Below, one piece after another: positions 2,537 to 14,358 of a DNA stretch of 64,000 nt (positions within the stretch are counted from its first letter, which is position 1; the number at the start of each line of letters is the position of its first letter). Below the pieces are notes generated by a model, which saw only the letters and a list, made by a program, of their open reading frames with translations, searched no databases and was not told the origin of the DNA. The DNA comes from Candidatus Bathyarchaeia archaeon (GTDB lineage: Archaea > Thermoproteota > Bathyarchaeia > Bathyarchaeales > Bathycorpusculaceae). A program made the position numbers and the translations under genes. The DNA is taken from assembly GCA_038883795.1 (NCBI GenBank), contig JAVZLK010000002.1, positions 96,001-160,000 of the forward strand, read 5' to 3'.

Positions 2537-4129
2537 TTACTCTGGCGGTATTTCGCTGAGCAGTGTTTTTAGGTCTATGCCCATCTTCTTGTTCTTGTAA
2601 GCGTAGTAAATGTAGAGGGCTAAGCCTATACCTAAAACAAGGCATGATATGAAAATGTCCAATGGCGCCATGACTTGGGCGTTTGCGGCGAAGAAGAATA
2701 TGCCCAAAGCAAAGGCGGCAACACCACATATAGCTGGAACCGGTACTCCAGCAACTTCAACCTTAATGCTTTCGTAGATTTCAGGCTTAGTTATTGGCAG
2801 CAAAGCCAAGGCAAGTCCAGTGAATAAATAGCCAAGCAAATACATGAAAGTCGCATTAATTCCACCAGCCAAAGTTCTCAGCGGACCCAAAACTGGCGAA
2901 GAAATAATTATGCCTATGGCTCCACCAATTACCATGAACAATATTGCCCAAGTTGGCGTGTGGAATCTTTCGCTAACATCAGCGAACCTTTCTGGAAACA
3001 GCCTATCAAAAGCCAAAGAGAAGACTCGTCTAGTTTCCATCATTAAAGCGGCAGGCTGCACGTGGTAAAGGCTGAAGGCTCCAGCCGTTGCTATTAGAAA
3101 TGTGAGGAGCACATTTCCACCACCAAAAATAACACCAAACATGGGTAACACTGGCTCAATTCTAGGCGTGATTTTAAAGTCTGCTGCTGTGCCTTTGTAA
3201 TAGGCCCAATTATATTGTGAGATGAATTCTCCACCCGCATAAAAGGCTGAAGCTGCCATAGTTATATAAATAACAGCCGTTATCAACGTACCACCGATTA
3301 TTCCAATCAACAAGTTTCTTTTCGGGTTCTTTATTTCGCCCGACCATTGAGCAGGGTTATGAAAACCAGAGTATGCGAAAAGAGCCGCACCTGCAACAGC
3401 CCGAATTGTGGCATCAAAGTTTGGTGCAGCTGGGCTCCAATTATATTTCTGGGCGATCGAAACAATTTCATCGTAGGATCCTGTACCCCAGACGGAGTCC
3501 CATGCGCTTTTGAAGGATGTCGGATTGAATGGGTTTGCGTAGTTTAGAGCGATGCAAGCTAGTGCGCCTATTATTGGAATGAGCCATATTATTGCTGTGT
3601 AAGCTTTGAATGCTGTTCCTCCAATCGTCAAAAACAGCCACACAGTGAAAAGCAGGAACAAGGCGCAAGCAATTTTTATTGTGGGGTCAGCAGCGGCAAG
3701 CCAAGATCCAAAATCAGCTAGACCCTTGTTGCCTGTTCCTTGCCCCAGCATTCTAAAAGCAATAGCCCAAAGGGACACATCCGTATAAAGTAGAAATCCT
3801 ATTGAAAACCACCTGCCCAAGAAGTTTCCTATTGTTACGACGTAGCCGAGTGCTGGGTTTGTTGTTCTTGAGATGAAAACGTAGTCTCCTCCAGCCCTTG
3901 GCATGCAGGAGGCTAGCCATGCGTATGAGATGGCGAAGAAGAAGGCTGGAATAAGTCCGATTATGAAGGCTAGGGTGGGGTCTGAGCCTGGATAAGTGTA
4001 TGGCATTCTTATTGATAGTCCCCAGATTCCTGCGCCTATCATGTTGTTCATTGCCATCATTAGTGCCATCATTGGACCGAATTCTCTGACAAGCCCAGTG
4101 GCTTCTCTTACAAAAGTTGCTTTAGACAA
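2537..4129 (-). CDS. APC-family amino acid/polyamine permease
   Basis: N-terminal FVREATGLVRE, MPRAGGDYVFISR, about 12 hydrophobic segments. Confidence 0.9.
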   Translation of the reverse strand: MSKATFVREATGLVREFGPMMALMMAMNNMIGAGIWGLSIRMPYTYPGSDPTLAFIIGLIPAFFFAISYAWLASCMPRAGGDYVFISRTTNPALGYVVTIGNFLGRWFSIGFLLYTDVSLWAIAFRMLGQGTGNKGLADFGSWLAAADPTIKIACALFLLFTVWLFLTIGGTAFKAYTAIIWLIPIIGALACIALNYANPFNPTSFKSAWDSVWGTGSYDEIVSIAQKYNWSPAAPNFDATIRAVAGAALFAYSGFHNPAQWSGEIKNPKRNLLIGIIGGTLITAVIYITMAASAFYAGGEFISQYNWAYYKGTAADFKITPRIEPVLPMFGVIFGGGNVLLTFLIATAGAFSLYHVQPAALMMETRRVFSLAFDRLFPERFADVSERFHTPTWAILFMVIGGAIGIIISSPVLGPLRTLAGGINATFMYLLGYLFTGLALALLPITKPEIYESIKVEVAGVPVPAICGVAAFALGIFFFAANAQVMAPLDIFISCLVLGIGLALYIYYAYKNKKMGIDLKTLLSEIPPE

Positions 4130-4245: not shown

Positions 4246-5202
4246 TTAACAAGCCACCCTCCAGTGTCCCTGAACCTTATCCCCACTCAAGAAAACAATG
4301 TAACCACGCAAAATACCCTCAGCATACTCAGAACCAGGATTAACGCATAAGGTTCTACCAAACCTTTTGAAACCAGCAGACTCATGTATATGCCCATGCA
4401 ACCCCAAGAGAGGCTTATACTTCTCTATCATATGCCTCACAGCTTTGCTGCCCATAGGCGCCAAATCTACTCCGCCACCGAAGCGAACCCTAACTGAAAA
4501 GTCATCCTTAAGTCTGGGCGCTGTGTCGAGTCCAGAATTGTATGGTGGTGCATGAAAGTTGCATATGAGTTTCTCGTAATTTTTGGCTTTAGCCATTAAC
4601 CCCTCTAACATGGGTTCAAGCTTCTCGTCTGGCGCTTCCCTTGTGGTTTTCCAAGGAGTTGGATTAACCCAGCCGCATGTAACCATTTCATATCCGTCTG
4701 GAAGGTGGACAAGCTTCATTTCGCATGCAACTACAGAATCGCTCTTTTCAAGAATTTCATCAACAACCAAACGGTCGTCATTTCCAGGCGAAACGTAAAG
4801 CACGGATTTTCCCTTAAATTTTTCAGAGGCAAGGTCCATCCACTGTTGCATTCGTTCCACCATGAGGCGGTTGAAAAGGTCTTTTTGGGCTTGGGGGTCA
4901 TTGTTCAAGCGTTCAATTTCTTCTTTTTCGCATGGATAAGGATAGTAACCAGAATTGGCTATCTTTGCACTTTCTTCTTGAAGCTGATTTGCCGTAATTT
5001 TAATATGTCTGCCAAAAATTTCATATGAATATTCACTGCCTTCTCTAACCATTGGTATAACCATTTTTCCAGTTAAATCTCCACCCAAAATTGCAATGTC
5101 AACCTTAAAATGTTCAATTACTCTTAAAAACTTCTTCCAACAAGTGTCGCTTCCATGAACGTCTGATGCGAAGAAAAGTTTCAGCAACCTTTTCATCTCC
5201 AA
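4246..5202 (-). CDS. Calcineurin-like metallophosphoesterase (Icc-related)
   Basis: SDVHGS, GGDLTGK, PGNDD, HAPP, LHGHIHES, NPGSEY motifs. Confidence 0.9.
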   Translation of the reverse strand: MEMKRLLKLFFASDVHGSDTCWKKFLRVIEHFKVDIAILGGDLTGKMVIPMVREGSEYSYEIFGRHIKITANQLQEESAKIANSGYYPYPCEKEEIERLNNDPQAQKDLFNRLMVERMQQWMDLASEKFKGKSVLYVSPGNDDRLVVDEILEKSDSVVACEMKLVHLPDGYEMVTCGWVNPTPWKTTREAPDEKLEPMLEGLMAKAKNYEKLICNFHAPPYNSGLDTAPRLKDDFSVRVRFGGGVDLAPMGSKAVRHMIEKYKPLLGLHGHIHESAGFKRFGRTLCVNPGSEYAEGILRGYIVFLSGDKVQGHWRVAC

Positions 5203-5229
5203 ACTTTAGTTCTAATGATAATTTTCAAC

Positions 5230-5241
5230 AAAATATACTTT
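5230..5241 (+). repeat. Candidate attL core (AAAATATACTTT)
   Basis: Identical 12-mer at 13168-13179; sits at the left boundary of the foreign genes. Confidence 0.6.
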
Positions 5242-5250
5242 GCTCTATGC

Positions 5251-5451
5251 TTATGTCTGAGAAAGTAAATGTCTGCTATGTTTAACCATATGTTCGCAGT
5301 AATCCGTCGTTTCAGTTTGCGCATTATAGCAGTTTTGGCATTCAATTATTCGCTGTTTTAAATTCGCTTTCGGAAAACGCCAAACGCAATTAGAAAAAAT
5401 TGGGTGTTTCGGTTCGGCGGTTTCCGTTTGTTTTTTGGGCATCTTACGCAC
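5251..5451 (-). CDS. Small Cys-rich hypothetical protein
   Basis: 66 aa, C...CQNC...CEH; overlaps the stop of the upstream RHH-AbrB gene. Confidence 0.55.
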   Translation of the reverse strand: MRKMPKKQTETAEPKHPIFSNCVWRFPKANLKQRIIECQNCYNAQTETTDYCEHMVKHSRHLLSQT

Positions 5452-5734
5452 GCTCGATTCTTACGCCTTTCTCTGTTCGGAAAATCTTTACGGGAATGTC
5501 TACACCTTTTTGCCAGCCGAGCGCTTCGTATAAGGCTTTTTCAATGTGCAAAAACCCGTATTTGTTGATTTTGCCTTCAAAAACTGTTTGTTCGGTTTCC
5601 TTGGCTTTCTTTTCGATTATCTCTGCAGCTTTTTCCTCAGCGGTTTTGCCTTCTGCTTTGGCTGACTTTTCGAGCGCTTCAGCCGTTTTCTCGGGTAATT
5701 GAATTTTCTTTTTCGGTTCAAATCTATTATTCAT
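5444..5734 (-). CDS. DNA-binding protein, RHH-like N-terminus + AbrB/MazE-like C-terminus
   Basis: KKIQLPEKTAEALEKSAKAEGKTAEE (RHH pattern) and GKINKYGFLHIEKALYEALGWQKG (AbrB pattern); good SD (AGGAGAAGTGAG). Confidence 0.7.
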   Translation of the reverse strand: MNNRFEPKKKIQLPEKTAEALEKSAKAEGKTAEEKAAEIIEKKAKETEQTVFEGKINKYGFLHIEKALYEALGWQKGVDIPVKIFRTEKGVRIERA

Positions 5735-6200
5735 TTTTTCTCACTTCTCCTTTTAACTCGCCCTCGGCGTCTGTCCGAAGGCAATGAGAAAAAGGGGAAA
5801 AGAAAACTTCGCATTTCTGCTTGCTACACAGCCTACTTTGTATTTATCCTATGCAATCGAGTGTCGCTTACCCGCTTATATGCATCATGAACGTAATAAC
5901 GGTTTAATCCGCTATTCGTTTTTCATGTGCTGCATTTCGTGCGTTTCCGGGGCTTTACCATCGTGCCCGTTCCAGACCCGGGTAACCCCGTTCCCGCTTT
6001 CGCTTATCGGCGATTTAACGATTCGCTGATTATTTTTGAGCGTTTAAACGGGTCGCTTTTTCGATTGGCGCTTTTACGTTTATGCGTTTTTCGTTTCCGG
6101 GAGTTACGCTTTCCCGTCCGTTTTACGCTCGCTCCTACGGGTCGTTTCGTTTCGTTTTTTCCTGTGCGTGTCGCTTTGCGACGAATAAGCGTATATTGGG
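5735..6200. other. Structured non-coding region (long leader, ncRNA or origin candidate)
   Basis: No credible ORF; CG-rich; several stem-loops; TTTAAATA TATA-like box on the minus strand at ~6205-6212. Confidence 0.45.
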
Positions 6201-6369
6201 TATCTATTTAAATTTTAGGTATGAATTATTCAGATTAGGCTAATTAAGCCACAAATTGACGATTTTCAGACTATATAATAAAACGTTTGTCACACCAATT
6301 TAAAAAAGTGAAAATATGTGTAATTAAGAAAGTAAAAATTTAAATAAACAAACGATTATTAAATCACAA

Positions 6370-6394
6370 TGGTCATCAGTGATCAAAATGACCA
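6370..6394. promoter_or_regulatory. Inverted repeat TGGTCAT-N11-ATGACCA, putative operator
   Basis: Perfect 7-bp inverted repeat overlapping the start codon of the RHH gene preceding the methyltransferase. Confidence 0.4.
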
Positions 6395-6537
6395 AACATA
6401 TAAAAATTAGTGATGAAAACTACAAAGAACTCATAAAAATCATCGGACTACTACAGGTCAAAGAAAAAAGAAGAGTGACTATAGATGATGCAATAGATTT
6501 TCTTCTTCAGAAGGTGAAAGTAGATGAACAACAATAA
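6388..6537 (+). CDS. Small ribbon-helix-helix (CopG/VapB-like) regulator
   Basis: Manual translation MTKHIKISDENYKELIKIIGLLQVKEKRRVTIDDAIDFLLQKVKVDEQQ (49 aa); overlaps the MTase start; below the ORF-track cutoff. Confidence 0.75.
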   Translation: MTKHIKISDENYKELIKIIGLLQVKEKRRVTIDDAIDFLLQKVKVDEQQ

Positions 6538-7432
6538 GAACTCCCTTTATCCCGAACGTGTTTTGTCAGAGATCTTAAAGTCAAGAGAAATAGAACTGCC
6601 AAGGACTCGGCACAAGATTGTAATTGGTGACAGCAGACATATGGATGAAGTAGCAAACGAATCAGTGCATTTAATAGTTACATCGCCTCCTTACCCAATG
6701 ATAGATATATGGGACGGCTTATTCAAAAAATTAGGATGTAAAACCTTTAATGACATGCATGATTATTTAGCTGACGTTTGGGCGGAATGTAAACGAGTTC
6801 TAGTTAACGGCGGAATTGCTTGTATAAATATCGGGGATGCCCTACGAAAAGTTAACGGCGTCTTTAGACTTTTTCCAAATCATGCAGAAGTCATTAAAAG
6901 ATTTGAGGAACTCGGATTTGTAACATTGCCAAATATTCTTTGGAAAAAGCCTACGACTAAACCTAATTCTTTTCTTGGTTCTGGTTTCCTTCCAACCAAC
7001 GCTTATGTTACATTAGATTGCGAATATATACTGATTTTTAGAAAAGGTGGCGACCTGAGAAAGTTTCTTACAAAAGACCCATACAGATACGCCAGTTACT
7101 ATACAAAAGAGGAAAGAGATGTATGGTTTTCCCAAATTTGGGACATCAAAGGCGTTAAGCAAGAATCCAACGAAGTTGAAAGAAGAGTAGCAGCTTACCC
7201 AGACGAAATTCCTTATAGATTACTAAGAATGTTTTCGATAATAGGTGATACCGTTTTAGATCCATTCTTAGGAACAGGCACAACAACTAAAGTTGCCATG
7301 AACCTTCACAGAAATAGCATAGGCTATGAGATAGATGAAAAAATGCTAACTCTAATAAAGAAGAAAATCGGTTACCAGCAGAGATTGTTCGAACCACATA
7401 AATTTGAAATCGAAATAATTAAGAAGCATTAA
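6524..7432 (+). CDS. Beta-class amino DNA methyltransferase (probably N4-cytosine)
   Basis: Motif IV TSPPY precedes motif I VLDPFLGTGTT. Confidence 0.93.
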   Translation: MNNNKNSLYPERVLSEILKSREIELPRTRHKIVIGDSRHMDEVANESVHLIVTSPPYPMIDIWDGLFKKLGCKTFNDMHDYLADVWAECKRVLVNGGIACINIGDALRKVNGVFRLFPNHAEVIKRFEELGFVTLPNILWKKPTTKPNSFLGSGFLPTNAYVTLDCEYILIFRKGGDLRKFLTKDPYRYASYYTKEERDVWFSQIWDIKGVKQESNEVERRVAAYPDEIPYRLLRMFSIIGDTVLDPFLGTGTTTKVAMNLHRNSIGYEIDEKMLTLIKKKIGYQQRLFEPHKFEIEIIKKH

Positions 7433-7470
7433 TTAAAAAATACTATTAACAAATATGGAAAGAGGCGACA

Positions 7471-7749
7471 ATGATGAGTAAACTTGTAAGAATAGAGCAT
7501 ACATTAAGAAGATGGGAGAAAAAGTATGGCTACATAGGGCTTTCTCTTGAACAAGAGCGTGATTTGTTTTCTGAAGTTAAGGATAAACGTTTTACATTGA
7601 AATTTTTAGGAAAAACTTTATTGGAACGGAAAATCGACGATAGCTGGCGCATATATGTTGGGTCCAGAGTTATGGAAGATTTAAAAGTTGATGACGTTTT
7701 GACAATTTACCAAGACAAAGACGGAAATTACTACGTTGAAAGAAAATAA
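7471..7749 (+). CDS. Hypothetical protein, possible DNA-binding pseudobarrel/AbrB-like fold
   Basis: 92 aa with EKKYGYIGL and RKIDDSWRIYVG...LKVDDVLTI beta-rich pattern; SD-like GAGG upstream. Confidence 0.6.
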   Translation: MMSKLVRIEHTLRRWEKKYGYIGLSLEQERDLFSEVKDKRFTLKFLGKTLLERKIDDSWRIYVGSRVMEDLKVDDVLTIYQDKDGNYYVERK

Positions 7750-7752
7750 ATA

Positions 7753-8352
7753 TTATTGCTCAAACTCAAACTCTATACCATCTTCTGTTTTTCTGTAGTA
7801 AACAATCTTTGCTGCTATCTTTTCCCCCAAGCGACCCTTTTCAATTTTATAAGTTTCTGGTTTAATAGAGACTGGTGTATCACCAATGAATCCATCGATT
7901 CCTTGTGCTTCTTCATCTGGCGTCGCCAATCTGTAGTTTTTCCTCAAGGTTGAAGCAATTCTTTTTAGCACAAGCTCTTGAAAACGCAGTCCAATAAAAG
8001 TTTTAACCAACACCAAATCTTCAACCCATTCTCTCACTATATTTTCATCGATTTTATCCATAACATTTTTAAATTCTTCTAACTTTTTAACTATTTTCTT
8101 TGTCGCCCGATCTATTGCATTTGGCATCACAGCCAAATACCATTTTTTCCATCCTTCAAATGTCTTGTAAGGACATTTTTGAATTAACTCACTCATCTGT
8201 CCAACAACTTCTGGTCGTGTTGCACCAGAAAAGCGATTTGCCAAATTTAAAATAGGAGAAACGTAAGTAGGAAAAACCTTCGACTCGCCAATTAGTTCAG
8301 TCCTGAGTTCGTCATTTTTAAGTTTAAATTTCATTTCGTTCACACTTTGCAA
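7753..8352 (-). CDS. Type II restriction endonuclease, MjaI/MthZI family
   Basis: ATRPEVVGQMSELIQ and EEAQGIDGFIGDTPVSIKP (PD-(D/E)XK variant); convergent on an SPPY MTase. Confidence 0.8.
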   Translation of the reverse strand: MQSVNEMKFKLKNDELRTELIGESKVFPTYVSPILNLANRFSGATRPEVVGQMSELIQKCPYKTFEGWKKWYLAVMPNAIDRATKKIVKKLEEFKNVMDKIDENIVREWVEDLVLVKTFIGLRFQELVLKRIASTLRKNYRLATPDEEAQGIDGFIGDTPVSIKPETYKIEKGRLGEKIAAKIVYYRKTEDGIEFEFEQ

Positions 8353-8398
8353 ATGTGCTTTGTATATAAACTTGATAAAAAACTTTCGGGCAGAGCAA

Positions 8399-9517
8399 TC
8401 AATTTCTGAAAAAGGTTGTAAGCTCAGAGTTGGGAATAAACTTATGGAAGATTAAGCATTTATCAGACAGCGTATATCTAATAAGTTCCAGATTTGTTGG
8501 TTTATTTTCTTGTAAAAATTTCACAGCATCGCTTGAGAATTCTTTTGCACATAGGTAACCATATACTTTGCTTAAATTGTTTTCACAGAGAAACTCTGCT
8601 ATCCAAACCATATACTTGACAAGTTGGTTAATATGCTCAAAAGACGCTTCTTTAGTTTTTAACTCTATGATCTTATATATTCTGCAATCGTTTCTTTCCA
8701 GAAAACCAAAGACATCCATGAATTTTATGTAGAAAGAGCGAATGGTATTAGCAATGAAGCTAAAATCTCCAAAGATATTTTTAATATTTTCATGCGCCTT
8801 TAAATCCTCTGGCTCAAAGGCATTAGCCATAATCCACGCTTCCATTAATTTTTCATCTCTAACAAGACCATTAATAGGAACCAAAGGCAATTCTATCTTT
8901 TTAAAATTGGACAAATTTTTTGAAAATACACTCGAATTAGAAGGCCCTTTTGGATTATTCTTTCGAAGCAGTTCAATCAGTTTTTTACCCTCTTCAGGTA
9001 ATAGTGGTCTGACAGTTTTTTCTTTATCTTCATACTTCCATCTTTCTGGGATAGTCCATATGCCTTTACAAAGATCTTTTAACTTAAAAACTTCATTTGC
9101 ATCAAAACCTTCATCAAAATAGAGACCCTCATCAGATTTAATAGAAATTTGCCAAAGAAAGTCGCTTTCAGACAAGGAAGGTAACTTTTTATTAACCAAT
9201 TTTTCTTTTAATAAATTACTACTTCTAAATTCCTCAGGGATTGAAGGATTTTCCAGAAATGTGCTTTCAGCTCTAAAGGCACCAAAAATTTTTTGTTCAC
9301 CTTTCACATGTATAAAAATTTGATCATCTTTCTTCACCCTTTTTAGATCAGCGAATATATCATAAATAGTAGCAAGCAAAGCATTTAATTCTGCAATACT
9401 AAGCGATTTTTGTTTTGTATTCCTATAGTATTTTTTGGGAAGACGGACGCCTATATATCCTTCTCTAAGAAATTGTAAAAATGTTGATTTATTATCTACG
9501 CTTATTATATGCGGCAT
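8399..9517 (-). CDS. EVE/PUA-like domain + NucS-like PD-(D/E)XK nuclease (putative modification-dependent restriction enzyme)
   Basis: N-terminal LKRVKKDDQIFIHVKG..IFGAFRAES (EVE-like); C-terminal EKLMEAWI...MDVF...IIELK...INQLVKY (NucS/Mrr-like). Confidence 0.7.
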   Translation of the reverse strand: MPHIISVDNKSTFLQFLREGYIGVRLPKKYYRNTKQKSLSIAELNALLATIYDIFADLKRVKKDDQIFIHVKGEQKIFGAFRAESTFLENPSIPEEFRSSNLLKEKLVNKKLPSLSESDFLWQISIKSDEGLYFDEGFDANEVFKLKDLCKGIWTIPERWKYEDKEKTVRPLLPEEGKKLIELLRKNNPKGPSNSSVFSKNLSNFKKIELPLVPINGLVRDEKLMEAWIMANAFEPEDLKAHENIKNIFGDFSFIANTIRSFYIKFMDVFGFLERNDCRIYKIIELKTKEASFEHINQLVKYMVWIAEFLCENNLSKVYGYLCAKEFSSDAVKFLQENKPTNLELIRYTLSDKCLIFHKFIPNSELTTFFRN

Positions 9518-9703
9518 AACTTACTAAGATAAGATCATACTCTCACACTCAATAAAAGATTTATGTTAGGAGCCATCAATGTTGGAACAATTCAAAATCC
9601 TGAAATTTGAACTTGTGTTTAGAGGTCATATTCTCGACATCTCTTTGTATGATTCTGTCAAAATCTGGCAAAAAAGACTACTCAATGTTGTGAAAATTTA
9701 AAA

Positions 9704-9773
9704 TTCTGTTTTCCGTTTTTCGATTTTCGGTTTTCCGTATTTCGTTTTTCGGTTTTTCCGAGTTGCGTTTTTT
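9704..9773 (+). repeat. Tandem 22-bp repeat built of TTTT(C)CG subunits
   Basis: TTTTCCGTTTTTCGATTTTCGG (9709-9730) and TTTTCCGTATTTCGTTTTTCGG (9731-9752), 20/22 identical, plus a degenerate third copy. Confidence 0.75.
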
Positions 9774-9791
9774 ATTAAACGTTTATATATA
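9772..9791 (+). promoter_or_regulatory. Archaeal TATA box for the RHH-nuclease operon
   Basis: TTTATATATA at 9782-9791, about 30 nt before the 83 aa ORF. Confidence 0.55.
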
Positions 9792-9819
9792 ATCCGTTTC
9801 GTTAACTAAGCGAAAAAAG

Positions 9820-10071
9820 TTGATAATAATGAGCGAAAAAGAGAAAAATCCAAAAGCCTGCCCATTATTGGTTAGCGATAACCCTAAGGACATTAAAAAG
9901 CTGAAACTTGAAAAAGGACAATGCCCAATTCCACCTATCCTTATGAATGCAAAACTTAGCAATATCGCCGAGACGGCTGGCGTTTCCGTTGAGCGAATGT
10001 TTGAAGCTTTGGTTAACATCACAATAGAAGAGTTGTGCTCAAAAGGTTTACTTAATCTGGTGAGAAAATGA
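9820..10071 (+). CDS. Small protein with RHH-like C-terminal half
   Basis: PIPPILMNAKLSNIAETAGVSVERMFEALV fits a beta-helix-G-x-S-helix pattern; ATGA overlap with the next gene. Confidence 0.6.
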   Translation: MIIMSEKEKNPKACPLLVSDNPKDIKKLKLEKGQCPIPPILMNAKLSNIAETAGVSVERMFEALVNITIEELCSKGLLNLVRK

Positions 10072-10712
10072 TGATAACTATTCATTGGCGAACAGTCCGT
10101 AAAATCTGGCGTGAATTAGCTGGTAAAAAACCTTCTCCTCAAACAAGGCATATATCGATTAACGGGCATGATGTTGTTGAAGTAATATTTACAGAAGAGC
10201 AAGCAAATGTAGTTATCGAAAGAGCTGACATAAAAGGCACAGATGCTATTAAAAAAGGTAAAAAGGGACCTATTGTTACTTTAAACCCGATGCATTTAAA
10301 TAGAGTTGGTTTCTTAGGACAAGTTGCATTTTATATATACGCTTTCGCTGATTTTAAAAAAGGTTTAGAATTAATTAAAATAGGGTATCAACCAGATATC
10401 ACCGATGTAGTTTTTAAGGGTTACCAGATTGATATAAAGACTCGTTCTAAACATTGGCATGATTGGCTTATGGTTCCAGAATTTCAATTTAAGAATAAAT
10501 TACACGATTTTTACGTTGGTTGTAGGCTTATGAGAGAAAATCCGTATATTATTCAAATATGGGGTTATGCAACTCGCAAAGAATTAGAAGAAGTTGAACC
10601 TTCCGATAAGTGGGGATATGATTTAACCAGAGCGATACCGTTTAAAAATCTTCACCCCGTTATTGAATTAAGAGATTTACGAATTAAAAAACCTCTTCAA
10701 TCATTCTTTTAA
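10068..10712 (+). CDS. Putative PD-(D/E)XK restriction-fold nuclease
   Basis: GFLGQVAF helix, then PDITDVVFKGYQIDIKT (D...D-x-K), DFYVGC and IWGYAT strands. Confidence 0.7.
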   Translation: MMITIHWRTVRKIWRELAGKKPSPQTRHISINGHDVVEVIFTEEQANVVIERADIKGTDAIKKGKKGPIVTLNPMHLNRVGFLGQVAFYIYAFADFKKGLELIKIGYQPDITDVVFKGYQIDIKTRSKHWHDWLMVPEFQFKNKLHDFYVGCRLMRENPYIIQIWGYATRKELEEVEPSDKWGYDLTRAIPFKNLHPVIELRDLRIKKPLQSFF

Positions 10713-11645
10713 ATCTCAACCTGATTCGTAATTAGCGTTTAAATCTCGTGTTCAGTGCATCAACTTTTCGCTCGATAAGTTACCCTTCACCTCGGTTAAG
10801 AATAACCTCGTAAAATCGTGATGCACTAAACACAACATTTAAACGCTGATTTAAAAAAGCAACGAGATTTAGTGGCACGATTCGGTGCAATGTCTCTTCG
10901 CTTCACATGCTAGAGGATAGGTATAGCGGAAAACTCGACTCACGCTAATACGTATCTCCTAACCGATGAAACAAAGAGACATTGAATTGTTTCAACCTTT
11001 CTACCTCGAGAGAATAGGTCTGCGAAAATCTGCGTCTTAACGTGCCCTATATCCTACCGAGGTTGAAAGGTAGAAACGATAGTGCAAAGACTCTGTGTTT
11101 CTGTCGTCGGAGGCGTATAGTCAGTTCGGGAGGCAGTCCGGAGCAGCACCTATCCCCTAGGCGCAGAAACACAGAGACATTGCAGATTTACCCGATGCAC
11201 AATTTGAATACATAAAATTGAAAAATTGGTTCTCGTTTAAGAAAAATTCTGCTCACCCTATAACGCCTTTTTCTTTTTCCTTAATTGAAAATAAGCCTAT
11301 TAAGGATGAAGCACAGTTTTTCTTAAACGAGCTTCAATTTTTCAATTTTACAAAATGGGATAATACATGGAATTAGAACTTTAGTGGGTTATATCGCTTA
11401 AAGTTTGAGATTTTGAGATTTAGACTTTATAGCAGAATTTCGGGAAGGAAGAGATAGTAAGTTAGTTTAAAAGTTATCACTTTTGAAGAGGGTATATCTC
11501 TCCCTACGGTTTTTGCTATTAGACCCTAAATCTCAAAATATTGAATGTTGAATTGCGGGAAAATTTTTGCGCAAAAGCATGATAAACGCAGAATTATCAA
11601 GCGTTTAGGCACGGTTTGTTCGCTGATTTTTTAAGATTTTTCCGC
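10710..11645 (+). ncRNA. Array of 7 long imperfect hairpins plus 1 short one; putative structured ncRNA or ssDNA hairpin array
   Basis: Inverted-repeat units 10730-10851, 10888-10984, 10986-11080, 11083-11184, 11213-11350, 11377-11406 (short), 11410-11539, 11555-11645; no ORF; strand inferred from the upstream operon and uncertain. Confidence 0.65.
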
Positions 11646-11757
11646 CAAAAGAGTATACCGCACAAAAACAATCAACAAGCTAAGATTATGGAACATAATT
11701 AATTAGGAGGTATAATCGAATCACCGTCCGCTATAACGAAATTTTTTGGGTGCGAAG

Positions 11758-13026
11758 TTACCGTTTTACGATAACCTCGCCATTTGAAAGCCTGTGAACG
11801 ATTTGCCAGCCAGCTTTAAGATATTGCAGAAGTTGGCTTTCGGGAATCTGTTCAAAAGTTTCGTTTAAACCCGCTCCATCTGGGTTCGTGTCGCTTTCCT
11901 TCATTAAATCTTCGAATTCTTTCTCCGTCATCCAGCGTTTCGCACGGTGACCGTATAAAGTCATTAATTCAGCGAAGAATCGTTTGCGTTCTTCAGCGTT
12001 TAAAGTTTCCATTCTGGCTTTTATTTCGGCTTTAAGCAGTTCGTCATGTTCAGGTTTCGGCTGTAAATCAATTAAGTGGTAAGCCTTTGCGTATATGTCT
12101 CTTTGAATGTTTTCAGAGGGAATTACGTAGCGGCTTTCAATGTCGCTCATTTTCAATTTATGTCCCATCCAATAACGCAATATTATGGGGTGCCTAATTT
12201 CTAAAGCCATATACGTTTCAAACAGCTTTCTTATTCGATGCGGTGAAGCTTTAACGCCGACTTTTTCGCCGAGCCTTTCCACTATTTTCGAAAGACAATC
12301 TAAACCGAGTTTTTCGTAAGGTTTTCTGTTGCTTACGGTTAATGGTGTATTATCGTTTATCGTTTCGCCCCGTTTACGCCTTAAATCCAAATATAACCTT
12401 AAAACTTCAATGGCGTTTGGTCCAAGCCAAGTTTCATATCGCACCTGTTCTTTACGCCTGATAACGTGTATGTGTATGAATTGTTCGCCTTTTTCAAAAT
12501 CTCGTTTTATGTCGCCGTAAGTTAATTCGATAAAATCTTCTCTGCTCATGCCTGAATCTTTTAAGCCTCGAATTATCCACCTTTGCTGAACAGTTGCGAC
12601 GTTATCTATTTTCTTAAATTCTTCAATCGTTAAAGGTTTAAGACCTTCAATAATGCCTACGCTCGGTGTTCCTATGTCCAATTTTATTCGACAGTTATAT
12701 TTGATTAGGCTTTTTACGGTTGCGTGAACGCTTGAGGCTACGTTTTTGGTGAAACCTCTGTTTTTGACAAGCCAATTTACGAATAAGTCAAGTTTAACAT
12801 CCCAATCTTCTAAGGCTTTGTCTAAATCCGCTTTTGCCTCAGTTTCCCATTTAGCCACCGTTTCATCAGGGTTTAACCCGCTGAATTCATGCCAAAGCAT
12901 AAGATTTCGTGAATAAATGCGTTCGGTTCTTTTGCTTCCGCTTTTCTTTGCTGCAAGCCTTTCAAATAATCTTTGAACGGTTTTAAACTGTTTCGCCCAC
13001 TTTTCATATTTGCTTTCGCTTTCCAT
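11758..13026 (-). CDS. Tyrosine recombinase/integrase
   Basis: SGMSREDF (box I, atypical), RRKEQ, HRIRK, WMGH, SRY catalytic pattern; C-terminal YLKAGWQIV...GEVIVKR tail seen in archaeal integrases. Confidence 0.9.
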   Translation of the reverse strand: MESESKYEKWAKQFKTVQRLFERLAAKKSGSKRTERIYSRNLMLWHEFSGLNPDETVAKWETEAKADLDKALEDWDVKLDLFVNWLVKNRGFTKNVASSVHATVKSLIKYNCRIKLDIGTPSVGIIEGLKPLTIEEFKKIDNVATVQQRWIIRGLKDSGMSREDFIELTYGDIKRDFEKGEQFIHIHVIRRKEQVRYETWLGPNAIEVLRLYLDLRRKRGETINDNTPLTVSNRKPYEKLGLDCLSKIVERLGEKVGVKASPHRIRKLFETYMALEIRHPIILRYWMGHKLKMSDIESRYVIPSENIQRDIYAKAYHLIDLQPKPEHDELLKAEIKARMETLNAEERKRFFAELMTLYGHRAKRWMTEKEFEDLMKESDTNPDGAGLNETFEQIPESQLLQYLKAGWQIVHRLSNGEVIVKR

Positions 13027-13167
13027 TTTTCCACTTCCTTTAAATTAGACACTTTGCGCTTCCGCCCCTGAAGCCACGTAGTTGCTCACGTCCGTAAGGG
13101 CGCTTACGGTTTAAAAAAAAGGCGGGGATATTTTTAAACTTTATTTTATTGGACGTTTTTGTTTATT

Positions 13168-13179
13168 AAAATATACTTT
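13168..13179 (+). repeat. Candidate attR core (AAAATATACTTT)
   Basis: Identical to 5230-5241; about 140 bp upstream of the integrase start. Confidence 0.6.
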
Positions 13180-13269
13180 ATGGAACAACAAACTCATGCT
13201 TAAGACCGTGGTTTTACCAATAACTTTTTCTGTTTTCTCCCTTATTGTAATGTTTGGGGAAACCTAACA

Positions 13270-14358
13270 GTGCGTTACGTTCTCTTCAAAGATTATGATG
13301 GCACAACCTACGAAATTGAAATGCCATTAACTTCAAAAGTTAACTACGAAACTATCAGAAAAAGCCTTGAAATACCAGATTATGTTGACAAATCAAGTTT
13401 CACCATGGAAAGAGGCTTAGTTACCATTTGGGCTGGGCTTAACGCTCACAAAGTAAAAGAATTTTCTCCAACAGTATCTCTTCAAAAACCCATCAGAGAA
13501 CCCATACCAACTTTATTCTTTGGCGGGGCAGCAGTTCGCATGCTATCTCCAAGCGCAAACAAACCTTCAAGCCCCTTCTTCCGCGAATTAAACGACATAG
13601 ACTTAATTGCTCCCAAAAACCGCGCCCAAGACCTCTACAAATTATTGTTATCCCTTGGCGAAATTTGTGGAACAAGATATTACCATTTCGCAGCCCGTTC
13701 CGACTGCAGATTTAACGCTATGAGGGCTGGAAAACGTTACCGTGTTAGAACCATCGAAAAAATCCTTGAAGATGACTCACTAGAATGTGGAGTCCTTGAC
13801 ATATTCACAGACGCCGTGGACCTTAGGCATAAAGTTGACGTCCGCGAAGAATTCAACTTTCCAAAAGAAAACTTGTATACAATAGGCATTGAAAACGTCA
13901 TCCTCTCCAAATGTCAATTTATCTTTGACGTGCCAGTTTCCGTCCGAAATGAGCTTACCCGCCAGCACATGGAATATCGAGTTCTCAACTACCCCCATTA
14001 TAAAAGTGACCGCCTTTTGATTGGTATAGAAGAGAAGGACATGAAAGACGTATGCGCATTATTCTTTGACCACGAAATTGGCAACCAAAAAGATAACATA
14101 AACCCAGACAAAATGCGCAAAATTCTTGAAAAGGATAAGAAGTTTGCCTTAACTTTCCGGCTCAATCTCGAAAACATATTAAGAAATGATGTGGTTCTTC
14201 AAGGGATAGGGTTCTCAAAGGCAGATATTACAAAAATTTTCTCCCGCATACAGAAGATCTTAGATGCTATGCCAAAAGTGGAGAAGAAATGGAGTAGTCC
14301 ATGGTGGAACGTTGATGTGGAAACTCCTCAAATAGTTGGGAAAAGCCACATTTCATAG
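13270..14358 (+). CDS. Pol-beta-superfamily nucleotidyltransferase-like protein
   Basis: FGGAAV...RELNDIDL (GG + DxD), LDIF third acidic strand, KDMKD helix. Confidence 0.6.
   Translation: MRYVLFKDYDGTTYEIEMPLTSKVNYETIRKSLEIPDYVDKSSFTMERGLVTIWAGLNAHKVKEFSPTVSLQKPIREPIPTLFFGGAAVRMLSPSANKPSSPFFRELNDIDLIAPKNRAQDLYKLLLSLGEICGTRYYHFAARSDCRFNAMRAGKRYRVRTIEKILEDDSLECGVLDIFTDAVDLRHKVDVREEFNFPKENLYTIGIENVILSKCQFIFDVPVSVRNELTRQHMEYRVLNYPHYKSDRLLIGIEEKDMKDVCALFFDHEIGNQKDNINPDKMRKILEKDKKFALTFRLNLENILRNDVVLQGIGFSKADITKIFSRIQKILDAMPKVEKKWSSPWWNVDVETPQIVGKSHIS

Follow-up and report, generated by a model that had tools for sequence, protein, structure and literature searches.

Long imperfect palindromes between a nuclease-like gene and an integrase gene in an integrative element of Bathyarchaeia

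What is the nature of a long run of palindromic DNA that separates two convergent genes in a Bathyarchaeia genome? We addressed this question for a stretch of 64,000 nucleotides of contig JAVZLK010000002.1 from a Candidatus Bathyarchaeia archaeon (hereafter the 64-kb window), in which a 0.95-kb run of long imperfect palindromes occupies positions 10699–11646 between the gene of a nuclease-like protein, P0001, and that of a tyrosine recombinase (integrase), P0002. Based on folding, comparative and database analyses, we tentatively read this array as a cis-acting DNA module, double-stranded or cruciform, that is probably the origin or a processing site of an integrative plasmid, a reading that we hold with reserve.

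Anatomy and pairing of the palindrome array

An inverted-repeat scan of the entire window (seed of 9, at least 14 nt, no more than 160 nt apart) returned 14 pairs, five of which lay inside 10730–11539 and a sixth at 11684–11717. A preliminary description of the locus had claimed consecutive inverted-repeat units downstream of the nuclease gene; they were found at the places it gave, and all but the last fold far beyond shuffled sequence. In the comparison of both strands with dinucleotide-shuffled controls that it had proposed, the RNA fold of the whole array reached z = −13.0 on the + strand and −12.5 on the − strand, with 0/20 shuffles as good on either strand, and DNA folding parameters yielded z = −8.5, again matched by none of 20 shuffles. 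Taken singly, the units H1–H6 had z-scores between −4.5 and −11.6 (100 shuffles per unit; values below are given as + / − strand, the palindromes themselves having no assigned strand). The spacing between successive units is 1–30 nt, and the only open reading frames (ORFs) within the array, of 57 and 52 amino acids (aa), both cross unit borders, the former (11042–11215) covering the H4 segment 11076–11176 that is absent from relatives.

The first unit, H1 (10699–10882; z −9.8/−9.3), is a hairpin of ~184 nt with the outer stem TAAATCTC/GAGATTTA. The extent originally proposed for it, 10730–10851, corresponds to the core of the hairpin (arms 10730–10762 and 10819–10851; 33 nt, 88% in the repeat finder), and the true extent is wider; the hairpin reaches outward to 10699, so that the end of the P0001 gene, with its final codons and stop codon, falls within the 5′ arm. 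The overlap of an H1 arm with the ORF end is also found in the related locus L024, and H1 homologues are present in L024, L031 and L040. The following three units are H2 (10886–10986; 97.3 bits; z −6.6/−8.6) with arms at 10888–10924 and 10948–10984 (37 nt, 76%), H3 (10988–11080; 75.8 bits; z −5.8/−5.6) with arms of tandem 8-mers (TTTCAACC TTTCTACC), which is visible in the minimum-energy folds, and H4 (11083–11186; z −5.9/−4.5) with arms at 11083–11103 and 11164–11184 (21 nt, 90%). H2, H3 and H4 resemble one another in sequence and constitute a single family, so the earlier statement that structure and not sequence repeats is right only in part.

A junction motif, CATTGCAGATTTACCCGATGC (11178–11198, +), recurs at unit borders, twice in L040 and as variants in L023, L024 and L031. 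H5 (11213–11350; z −11.6/−9.5) is an A+T-rich hairpin of 138 nt whose outer arms consist of tandem 8-mers AAAATTGA (arms 11213–11253 and 11310–11350; 41 nt, 88%), with a homologue at L040 7327–7459. A short stem at 11377–11406 (z −3.6/−3.3) adjoins H6 (11402–11539; z −6.9/−5.5), the stem of which combines tandem 8-mers TTTGAGAT with AAATCTC motifs (arms 11410–11423 and 11526–11539; 14 nt, 100%). The region previously taken for a seventh hairpin, H7, folds no better than chance (z −1.9/−1.4, 100 shuffles); it holds a conserved block at 11553–11646 (+), AAGMATGA followed after ~40 nt by TTTTTTMAAGATTTTTC, with two T-runs on the + strand, and this sequence block is common to the window, L040, L031 and L027. 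A T-rich 18-mer of this right-end motif matched at least 116 contigs and was uninformative. Elsewhere in the same genome (contig C58, ~3930–3965) a stretch resembling the motif (GCGGAAATTTTTTCTTTAAGATTTTTCACGCC) lies between two host genes, and these genomes may use the motif as a promoter or terminator signal in general, not specifically in the element.

The arms are composed of two or three tandem 8–9-mers that are mirrored in the opposite arm. These tandem 8–9-mers occur at 8 places in the window array compared with 1.5 ± 1.3 in 200 shuffles (maximum 6), and likewise in other loci, L027–L030 using different 8–9-mers. In addition, the heptamer AAATCTC is found seven times in the 1 kb of the array (7.0 per kb) versus 0.22 per kb in the rest of the window, a ~30-fold enrichment that is similar in the L031 and L040 arrays and extends to both orientations. 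Its sites lie in the stems of H1 and H6 and in the apical parts of H2/H3-type units, the apical sequences of which are conserved.

Neither strand is preferred for pairing. Over 25 hairpins from 9 loci, we counted 93 G–U pairs on the strand of the P0001-like gene and 89 on the other, and the sense strand folded better in 11 hairpins, worse in 13 and equally well in one. Within the window the mixed preference reported in the preliminary description was recovered, with H1 and H2 folding better on the − strand and H4, H6, the short stem and the H7 region on the + strand. Arm complementarity is kept in the deeper comparisons: for eight orthologous and paralogous units of the H2/H3/H4 family, two-sided changes were observed in 15 of 24 pairs, a level reached by 0/500 shuffles and set against a maximum of 7 in slid controls, and for H1 they affected 13 of 43 pairs among four loci.

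Recurrence of the array beside P0001-family genes

Proteins of the A1 family, the close homologues of P0001, were present at 9 metagenome loci, three of which (L025, L026 and L027) are the same in sequence, leaving 7 distinct contigs. Five of these seven (L024, L025/26/27, L028, L029 and L031) carry long inverted repeats downstream of the gene, at a distance of up to ~250 nt. In L023 one H2/H4-type unit (76.9 bits) is located ~300 nt downstream of the gene, and the L030 contig ends 129 nt past the gene with inverted tandem 8-mers already present. When 5262 sliding windows of 120 nt were folded with a correction for GC content, the rare outliers (0.5%) fell mainly at these array positions. The unit ends TGCAAWGWCTC...GAGWCATTGCA as well as the junction motif are common to L023, L024 and L031. 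Related arrays were found only beside P0001-family genes, on the seven distinct metagenome contigs and in an element of a sister genome (L040), so that the proposed link of the array to the nuclease gene is supported by its recurrence downstream of close homologues. The arrangement to be expected of a hairpin-type origin, stem-loops directly downstream of the gene that recur with its relatives, was thus seen with the A1-family homologues and in L040. L029 additionally carries, at 6830–7060, a direct tandem repeat of ~100 nt (2.3 copies) between the first hairpin downstream of its P0001 homologue and the next ORF.

The closest array is that of L040, on contig C8 of the sister genome G001, where H2–H3 are 88% and H5 is ~75% identical to the window. 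There, the array is placed between an integrase of a different family (Phage_integr_3; Pfam E 4e-29) and the gene of P0015, a protein of 187 aa that matches the broad A5 profile (hhalign 83%, E 8.5e-6) and scores 1.3% against the narrow A1 profile. P0015 is without the motif lysine, having E-I-G at the D-x-K position. The L040 element spans ~3.2 kb bounded by host genes and a transfer RNA (tRNA) gene, and the array accounts for about one fifth of it, the remainder holding only the integrase and one gene. Two tRNA genes flank the element region, at 5133–5207 (+) and 8981–9055 (−), the second of which is probably the integration target of the 3.2-kb element; an ORF of 101 aa that overlaps this tRNA (8755–9060) is probably spurious.

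The units act as modules: from one relative to the next, entire units are turned round, relocated or lost. Compared with the window, an array of the L040 type is without H4 (exactly 101 nt, 11076–11176) and without H6; its H1 is inverted and stands next to the integrase, and H5 is flanked by the junction motif on either side. Contigs from two other metagenome runs carry these joints, that of 11075 to 11177 being found in one contig each of the runs X1 and X3. The joint at which H4 is present or absent is ambiguous by 2 nt (AC), compatible with a tiny duplication or slippage. The contigs recovered from the four sequencing runs contributed related arrays only.

Outside these loci, no further copy of the array DNA was found in the genomes and collections searched. 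Searched with BLAST against its own 2.18-Mb assembly (87% complete), the array returned only self matches below E 0.04, and exact and one-mismatch unit patterns revealed no further copies in this genome. A covariance model of the H2/H3/H4 family (R1) matched 2 of 151 genomes, always inside the window and L040 arrays, and a loose unit pattern matched 31 of 301 genomes (reversed control, 11 genomes), with true units by inspection only on contig C2 of the window's own genome and on C8 of G001. The earlier concern that the units might be dispersed miniature inverted-repeat transposable elements (MITEs) was pursued in the own genome and in 151 genomes, and no copies outside arrays were found. At E ≤1e-4, array BLAST against 401 genomes of the order, with two candidates per genome scored and G001 not included, recovered only the window itself. 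Array DNA had no match in plasmid and phage collections; two viral contigs that matched an 18-mer of the junction motif were taken as chance because the similarity did not extend beyond it. Among the sequencing runs listed, the best-matching ones share only 5–7% of words and none is an RNA run.

The absence of any recognisable clustered regularly interspaced short palindromic repeat (CRISPR), type III toxin–antitoxin or attC consensus, as originally stated, was confirmed by Rfam, attC-box and repeat tests. Rfam 15, searched with window 9500–13500 at E up to 10, returned as its best hit CRISPR-DR65 at 21 bits versus a gathering score of 43 (E 6.6), and at gathering score the seven related loci yielded only two tRNAs, in L040. 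Using the integron box consensus R″ RYYYAAC and R′ GTTRRRY on both strands of 10690–11660, we detected no RYYYAAC and one GTTRRRY on the + strand, and no paired match at 35–130 nt spacing on either strand. Integron attC sites, including clusters of attC sites lacking integron-integrases (CALIN), were dismissed on the missing boxes, the lack of cassette ORFs between units and the lack of a single recombinogenic strand. In type III toxin–antitoxin systems the RNA consists of short direct repeats, nearly identical and in tandem, that precede the toxin gene; the units described here, ~100–180 nt long, mostly dissimilar, palindromic and downstream of the gene, do not belong to this class. Full-text literature searches on Bathyarchaeia and archaeal mobile elements, integrons and palindromic origins brought up no account of arrays of this type.

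The integrated element and its proteins

The array is situated inside a 7.9-kb integrated element (window ~5243–13167). A 12-nt repeat, AAAATATACTTT, read in the sequence and without assigned strand, marks its borders as the attachment (att) cores attL (5231–5242, left) and attR (13168–13179, right, ~140 nt beyond the integrase start). In three genomes of the same genus (G001, G002 and G003) the site is empty, 5241 being joined directly to ~13159–13169 on one contig, and in a fourth (G004) the two flanks are on separate contigs. Because the site is empty in three of four same-genus genomes and the repeat is present at both borders, the array is assigned to this element, whose G+C content is lower than that of its surroundings. 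Genes of EF-1 beta and CDC48 neighbour it, as befits an archaeal metagenome-assembled genome (MAG).

Besides the small ORF, P0001 and the integrase, the element encodes an MjaI-type restriction enzyme and methylase and a NucS-like nuclease. These are an N6_N4 methylase (Pfam; 6524–7432, +), an MjaI-family restriction enzyme (7753–8352, −; Pfam E 7e-66) and a 372-aa protein with a weak C-terminal NucS/PD-(D/E)XK match (8399–9517, −), so that window 6524–9517 constitutes a defence-type cargo. A direct-repeat scan found about five 11-nt T-rich repeats resembling TTTTCCGTTTT (9704–9760, +), just upstream of a TATA-like box, TTTATATA (~9783–9790), which we take to be the promoter of the small-ORF/P0001 operon from the archaeal TATA consensus. 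The T-rich repeats may be operator or iteron sites. Copies similar to these 11-mers are found near the left end of the element at 5688–5718 and 5908–5924. The small ORF, P0165 (9829–10071, +; 80 aa from ATG), overlaps the P0001 start and matched no Pfam family; by tblastn its homologues lie upstream of the P0001 homologues in L023 and L024.

P0001 (10068–10712, +) is a 214-aa protein of an unnamed PD-(D/E)XK-like family, in which D110/D113 and D122-x-K124 are invariant across P0001 and 12 close homologues. Its AlphaFold (AF2) model (predicted local distance difference test, pLDDT, of 82) has an alpha-beta-beta-beta-alpha-beta core of the restriction-endonuclease fold, and a fold search gave weak matches (best E 0.035), to the resolvase Hje and to restriction enzymes of type II. 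P0001 matched no family in Pfam, NCBIfam or PHROG and no Rep family; membership in Rep-Arvir was ruled out as there was no DUF7845 match, and the likeness to clusters named DUF5843 (feature score 0.96) was not confirmed by Pfam. Our full-text literature search found no paper mentioning DUF5843. A profile search collected 269 representative P0001-like proteins at E ≤0.001, mostly of 160–250 aa. One of these representatives, P0032 (644 aa), combines a P0001-like domain with a Walker A/B ATPase region and, at the C terminus, a winged helix-turn-helix. Fusions of this layout are common in initiators. P0001 was absent from 100 relatives searched, whereas the broader A5 profile matched 5 of 401 genomes of the class, the own genome included. 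The A1 profile had no match in IMG/VR, nor had P0001 by tblastn in plasmid and phage collections; together with the searches above, array and P0001 match nothing in Rfam, in these collections or in IMG/VR. At one of four more distant P0001-like loci, L213, a perfect hairpin with 21-nt arms of TTTTGAAAC 9-mers (984–1088) lies inside a 458-aa ORF with winged-helix matches immediately upstream of the P0001-like gene, and a convergent archaeal-type integrase is ~0.8 kb off.

The tyrosine recombinase P0002 (11758–13026, −; 422 aa; Pfam Phage_integrase E 1.1e-5) is convergent with P0001. It scores 42.7 bits against the NCBIfam XerA/integron-integrase model (cutoff 220), a combined model and not one of the IntI domain, and an IntI-type integrase was rejected on this basis. 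Homologues were found in L022, L027, L028, L029 and L031, and its sole close relative within the genome collection comes from a Bathyarchaeia MAG. Members of the P0002 family share, outside the catalytic domain, a conserved C-terminal tail, LLxYLxxGWQIVHxLxNGxVIIRKG (12700–13026 and homologues, alignment A2), sometimes with a Cys-rich stretch (CxNGxxC) ahead of it.

Elsewhere in the own genome, a CRISPR array with at least four copies of a 37-nt repeat is located at a contig end (C30, 19203–19467), the only one detected by a simple scan of the 81-contig assembly.

Possible roles of the array

Strand symmetry, the iteron make-up of the arms, the link with a single gene family and the fact that the array takes up much of a minimal element together argue that the array is DNA needed in cis. 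The mobile-element context, the maintained complementarity of the arms and the domain fusion in P0032 point in the same direction. The layout of T-rich repeats, TATA-like box, small ORF, P0001 and hairpins matches that of pRN1 and SNJ2, pointing to a probable origin or processing site. We envisage a small integrative plasmid-like element of Bathyarchaeia-type archaea composed of the small ORF with a P0001-family gene, the array and a convergent integrase. Its palindromes, as inverted sets of tandem 8–9-bp iterons plus AAATCTC, would act as double-stranded or cruciform DNA, and replication of the excised circle would start at the array, the site being read by the element's own protein and/or by host factors. 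Such a scheme implies that hairpins or cruciforms form and that P0001 may act on the array. The more specific proposal of a new initiator/origin pair, in which a PD-(D/E)XK-fold initiator would act on a multi-palindrome origin, seems to us possible yet doubtful.

For pRN1 of Sulfolobus, the published study describes a 100-nt stem-loop downstream of the orf56/orf904 repressor/rep operon that is required for replication, that depends on stem integrity and not on position, and that recurs in related plasmids (PMC4234260). The window shares with pRN1 a small regulator-like ORF and a larger gene in one operon with a long stem-loop directly downstream, but it has 6–7 hairpins over 0.95 kb instead of one, and its upstream protein is a 214-aa PD-(D/E)XK-like protein and not a primase-polymerase/helicase. 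In the betapleolipovirus SNJ2, an inverted repeat and a conserved hairpin within 210 bp downstream of rep are the likely origin of an integrase-linked replication module; this motif recurs only beside homologues of the gene of Rep-Arvir, a DUF7845/TATA-binding-protein (TBP)-fold protein of ~470 aa with a catalytic tyrosine (PMC13107129). SNJ2 and the element in the window are both temperate archaeal elements with hairpin DNA immediately after a candidate initiator gene and an integrase in the same module, whereas the SNJ2 site is short and bipartite where we find an array, and P0001 has no DUF7845 match in Pfam. Parvovirus-type terminal hairpins are long imperfect palindromes with tandem short initiator-binding repeats (period 4) in the stem and an HUH initiator. 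The present stems likewise contain tandem short repeats and palindrome H1 occurs in both orientations, but here the hairpins lie inside an element that is circular or integrates, not at its ends, the repeat period is 8–9 and there is no HUH initiator.

Several observations weigh against an origin. The element has no recognised replication protein, and the weak fold matches of P0001 lean toward restriction enzymes and resolvases. P0015 is barely alignable to P0001, yet its array shares H1, H2, H3 and H5, whereas the L027 protein is 56% identical and its hairpins are quite different, and H1 is absent from L023 despite a protein identity of 81%; array type is thus uncoupled from protein similarity, making a sequence-specific pair of protein and site doubtful. 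At ~950 bp with 6–7 palindromes the array is also far larger than the pRN1 or SNJ2 elements, and none of four more distant P0001-like loci has a hairpin within 1.5 kb downstream. The comparison of window and L040 alone showed only 0–2 compensatory changes per unit and 0–25 broken pairs, depending on unit, strand and orientation; because this close pair has so few compensatory changes, the two-sided signal stems from the deeper comparisons. Two-sided changes could furthermore result from DNA-level homogenisation of palindrome arms without selection.

Among the alternatives, a structured RNA would explain the strong folds and two-sided stem changes as well as the conserved apical sequences of the H2/H3-type units. 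Transcription of the array would then proceed from the promoter of the small ORF and P0001, or from promoters belonging to the array itself, to yield either a long structured 3′ untranslated region (UTR) or individual hairpin RNAs (serving as guide, decoy, antitoxin or stabiliser) that partner the P0001-family nuclease, comparable to omega-RNA at the tnpB 3′ end. The overlap of the H1 arm with the ORF end in the window and L024, a canonical TATA-like promoter directed into the array, and the conserved double T-runs of the + strand at its far end, which could be an archaeal terminator, fit this idea. We nevertheless consider it unlikely, given that no Rfam gathering score was reached in the window or the seven related loci apart from the two tRNAs, that the G–U counts indicate no common strand, and that units stand in both orientations relative to the gene. 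Moreover, tandem 8–9-mer arms and near-complete palindromy are unnecessary for RNA hairpins, and an array also accompanies the catalytically doubtful P0015. The single multi-hairpin non-coding RNA co-transcribed with the nuclease, as first suggested for this locus, is accordingly not favoured by the 25 hairpins. Processed hairpin RNAs that programme or regulate the P0001-family protein in an omega-RNA-like manner, with the RNA gene overlapping the nuclease 3′ end, appear very improbable; if they existed, the system would constitute a novel class of restriction-fold nucleases guided or controlled by RNA and carried by minimal integrase elements. An RNA role of another kind, in which the arms imitate host CRISPR repeats as decoys for Cas proteins, was considered since the unit ends are similar to GCAATGACTC, and ...CTAAC..TGAAAC to the host repeat at its two ends: the 37-nt repeat of C30 starts with GTAGCAATGACTC and ends with CTAACTGAAAC, and H2/H4-type units start with TGCAATGTCTC or TGCAAAGACTC and have CTAACCGATGAAAC near the 3′ end. 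This mimicry is scarcely credible. Its best array position has 18/37 identity to the full repeat, a score that 321 positions in the 64-kb window reach and that is therefore not significant, and the two resemblances, noticed post hoc, are ~80 nt apart and not contiguous.

At the DNA level, the array could also be a cluster of recombination sites, with the TAAATCTC stems, the TGCAAWGWCTC unit ends and the CATTGCAGATTTACCCGATGC junction serving as tyrosine-recombinase crossover sites at which segments would be inverted, excised and reshuffled, as happens in shufflons and attC arrays. Shufflons such as that of R64 with its recombinase Rci are clusters of inverted repeats at a gene 3′ end, adjacent to a tyrosine recombinase and variable in segment order and orientation. 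The array resembles them in abutting the 3′ end of its upstream gene, in having a tyrosine recombinase gene no more than ~110 nt away in the window and L040, and in units that, between copies, are inverted (H1), relocated, or present in one and missing from another (H4, 101 nt with the 2-nt ambiguity), the junction motif being duplicated at borders. Unlike shufflons, it consists of short palindromes without alternative coding ends, its recombinases beside similar arrays are unrelated, and the variation is seen between populations, from assembled contigs. Integron attC sites, including archaeal ones, are described as tandem imperfect palindromes of ~60–140 nt conserved in structure and not in sequence (PMC9668308). 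The likeness to such arrays ends at tandem imperfect palindromes near a tyrosine recombinase, as no ORFs separate the hairpins, R″/R′ boxes are missing, P0002 is not IntI-like and no single strand stands out. Further points make recombination sites distinctly unlikely: other genes intervene between array and integrase in L027, L028, L029 and L031, most arm pairs are only 23–60 nt apart, probably too short for synapsis, and both a P0001 homologue and an array are missing from L022, whose integrase is 62% identical to P0002. The att core of P0002 itself, at least 1.4 kb from the array, is unrelated in sequence to the array repeats, and near-identical arrays adjoin integrases of different families. 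Neither a pairing of the array with its integrase, given the different integrase family at L040, nor the original suggestion that the hairpins are folded single-stranded DNA sites for the adjacent recombinase, whose att cores lie elsewhere, is hence favoured. Finally, the gap between the convergent genes might merely be a tolerated sink for functionless palindromes, selfish or neutral, of foldback, MITE-like or slippage origin. The rapid unit turnover between close relatives, the missing strand bias, the few compensatory changes in the close pair, unit ends resembling terminal inverted repeats and the uncoupling of array type from neighbouring proteins would suit such a sink. It is quite unlikely all the same, as BLAST and the exact and one-mismatch patterns found no other copy in the own genome and the covariance model matched only within arrays, as about one fifth of a 3.2-kb element with only an integrase and one gene besides is devoted to the array, as H1 and the right-end motif keep their sequence between elements with proteins ≤48% identical, and as the two-sided changes exceed all 500 shuffles.

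Bathyarchaeia mobile elements, and with them the replication and movement of small integrative elements of this group, are almost unstudied. The present analysis defines a minimal element type consisting of an integrase, a PD-(D/E)XK-like gene and a 0.7–0.95-kb palindrome/iteron array, down to a size of ~3.2 kb, and provides exact borders and an empty site for the element in the window. Should the array prove to be an RNA or a device for recombination, it would represent a novel type within that class; if it is the origin, as we tentatively propose, it would offer a compact replicon for genetic tools in a lineage dominated by uncultured members and would indicate a new initiator family.

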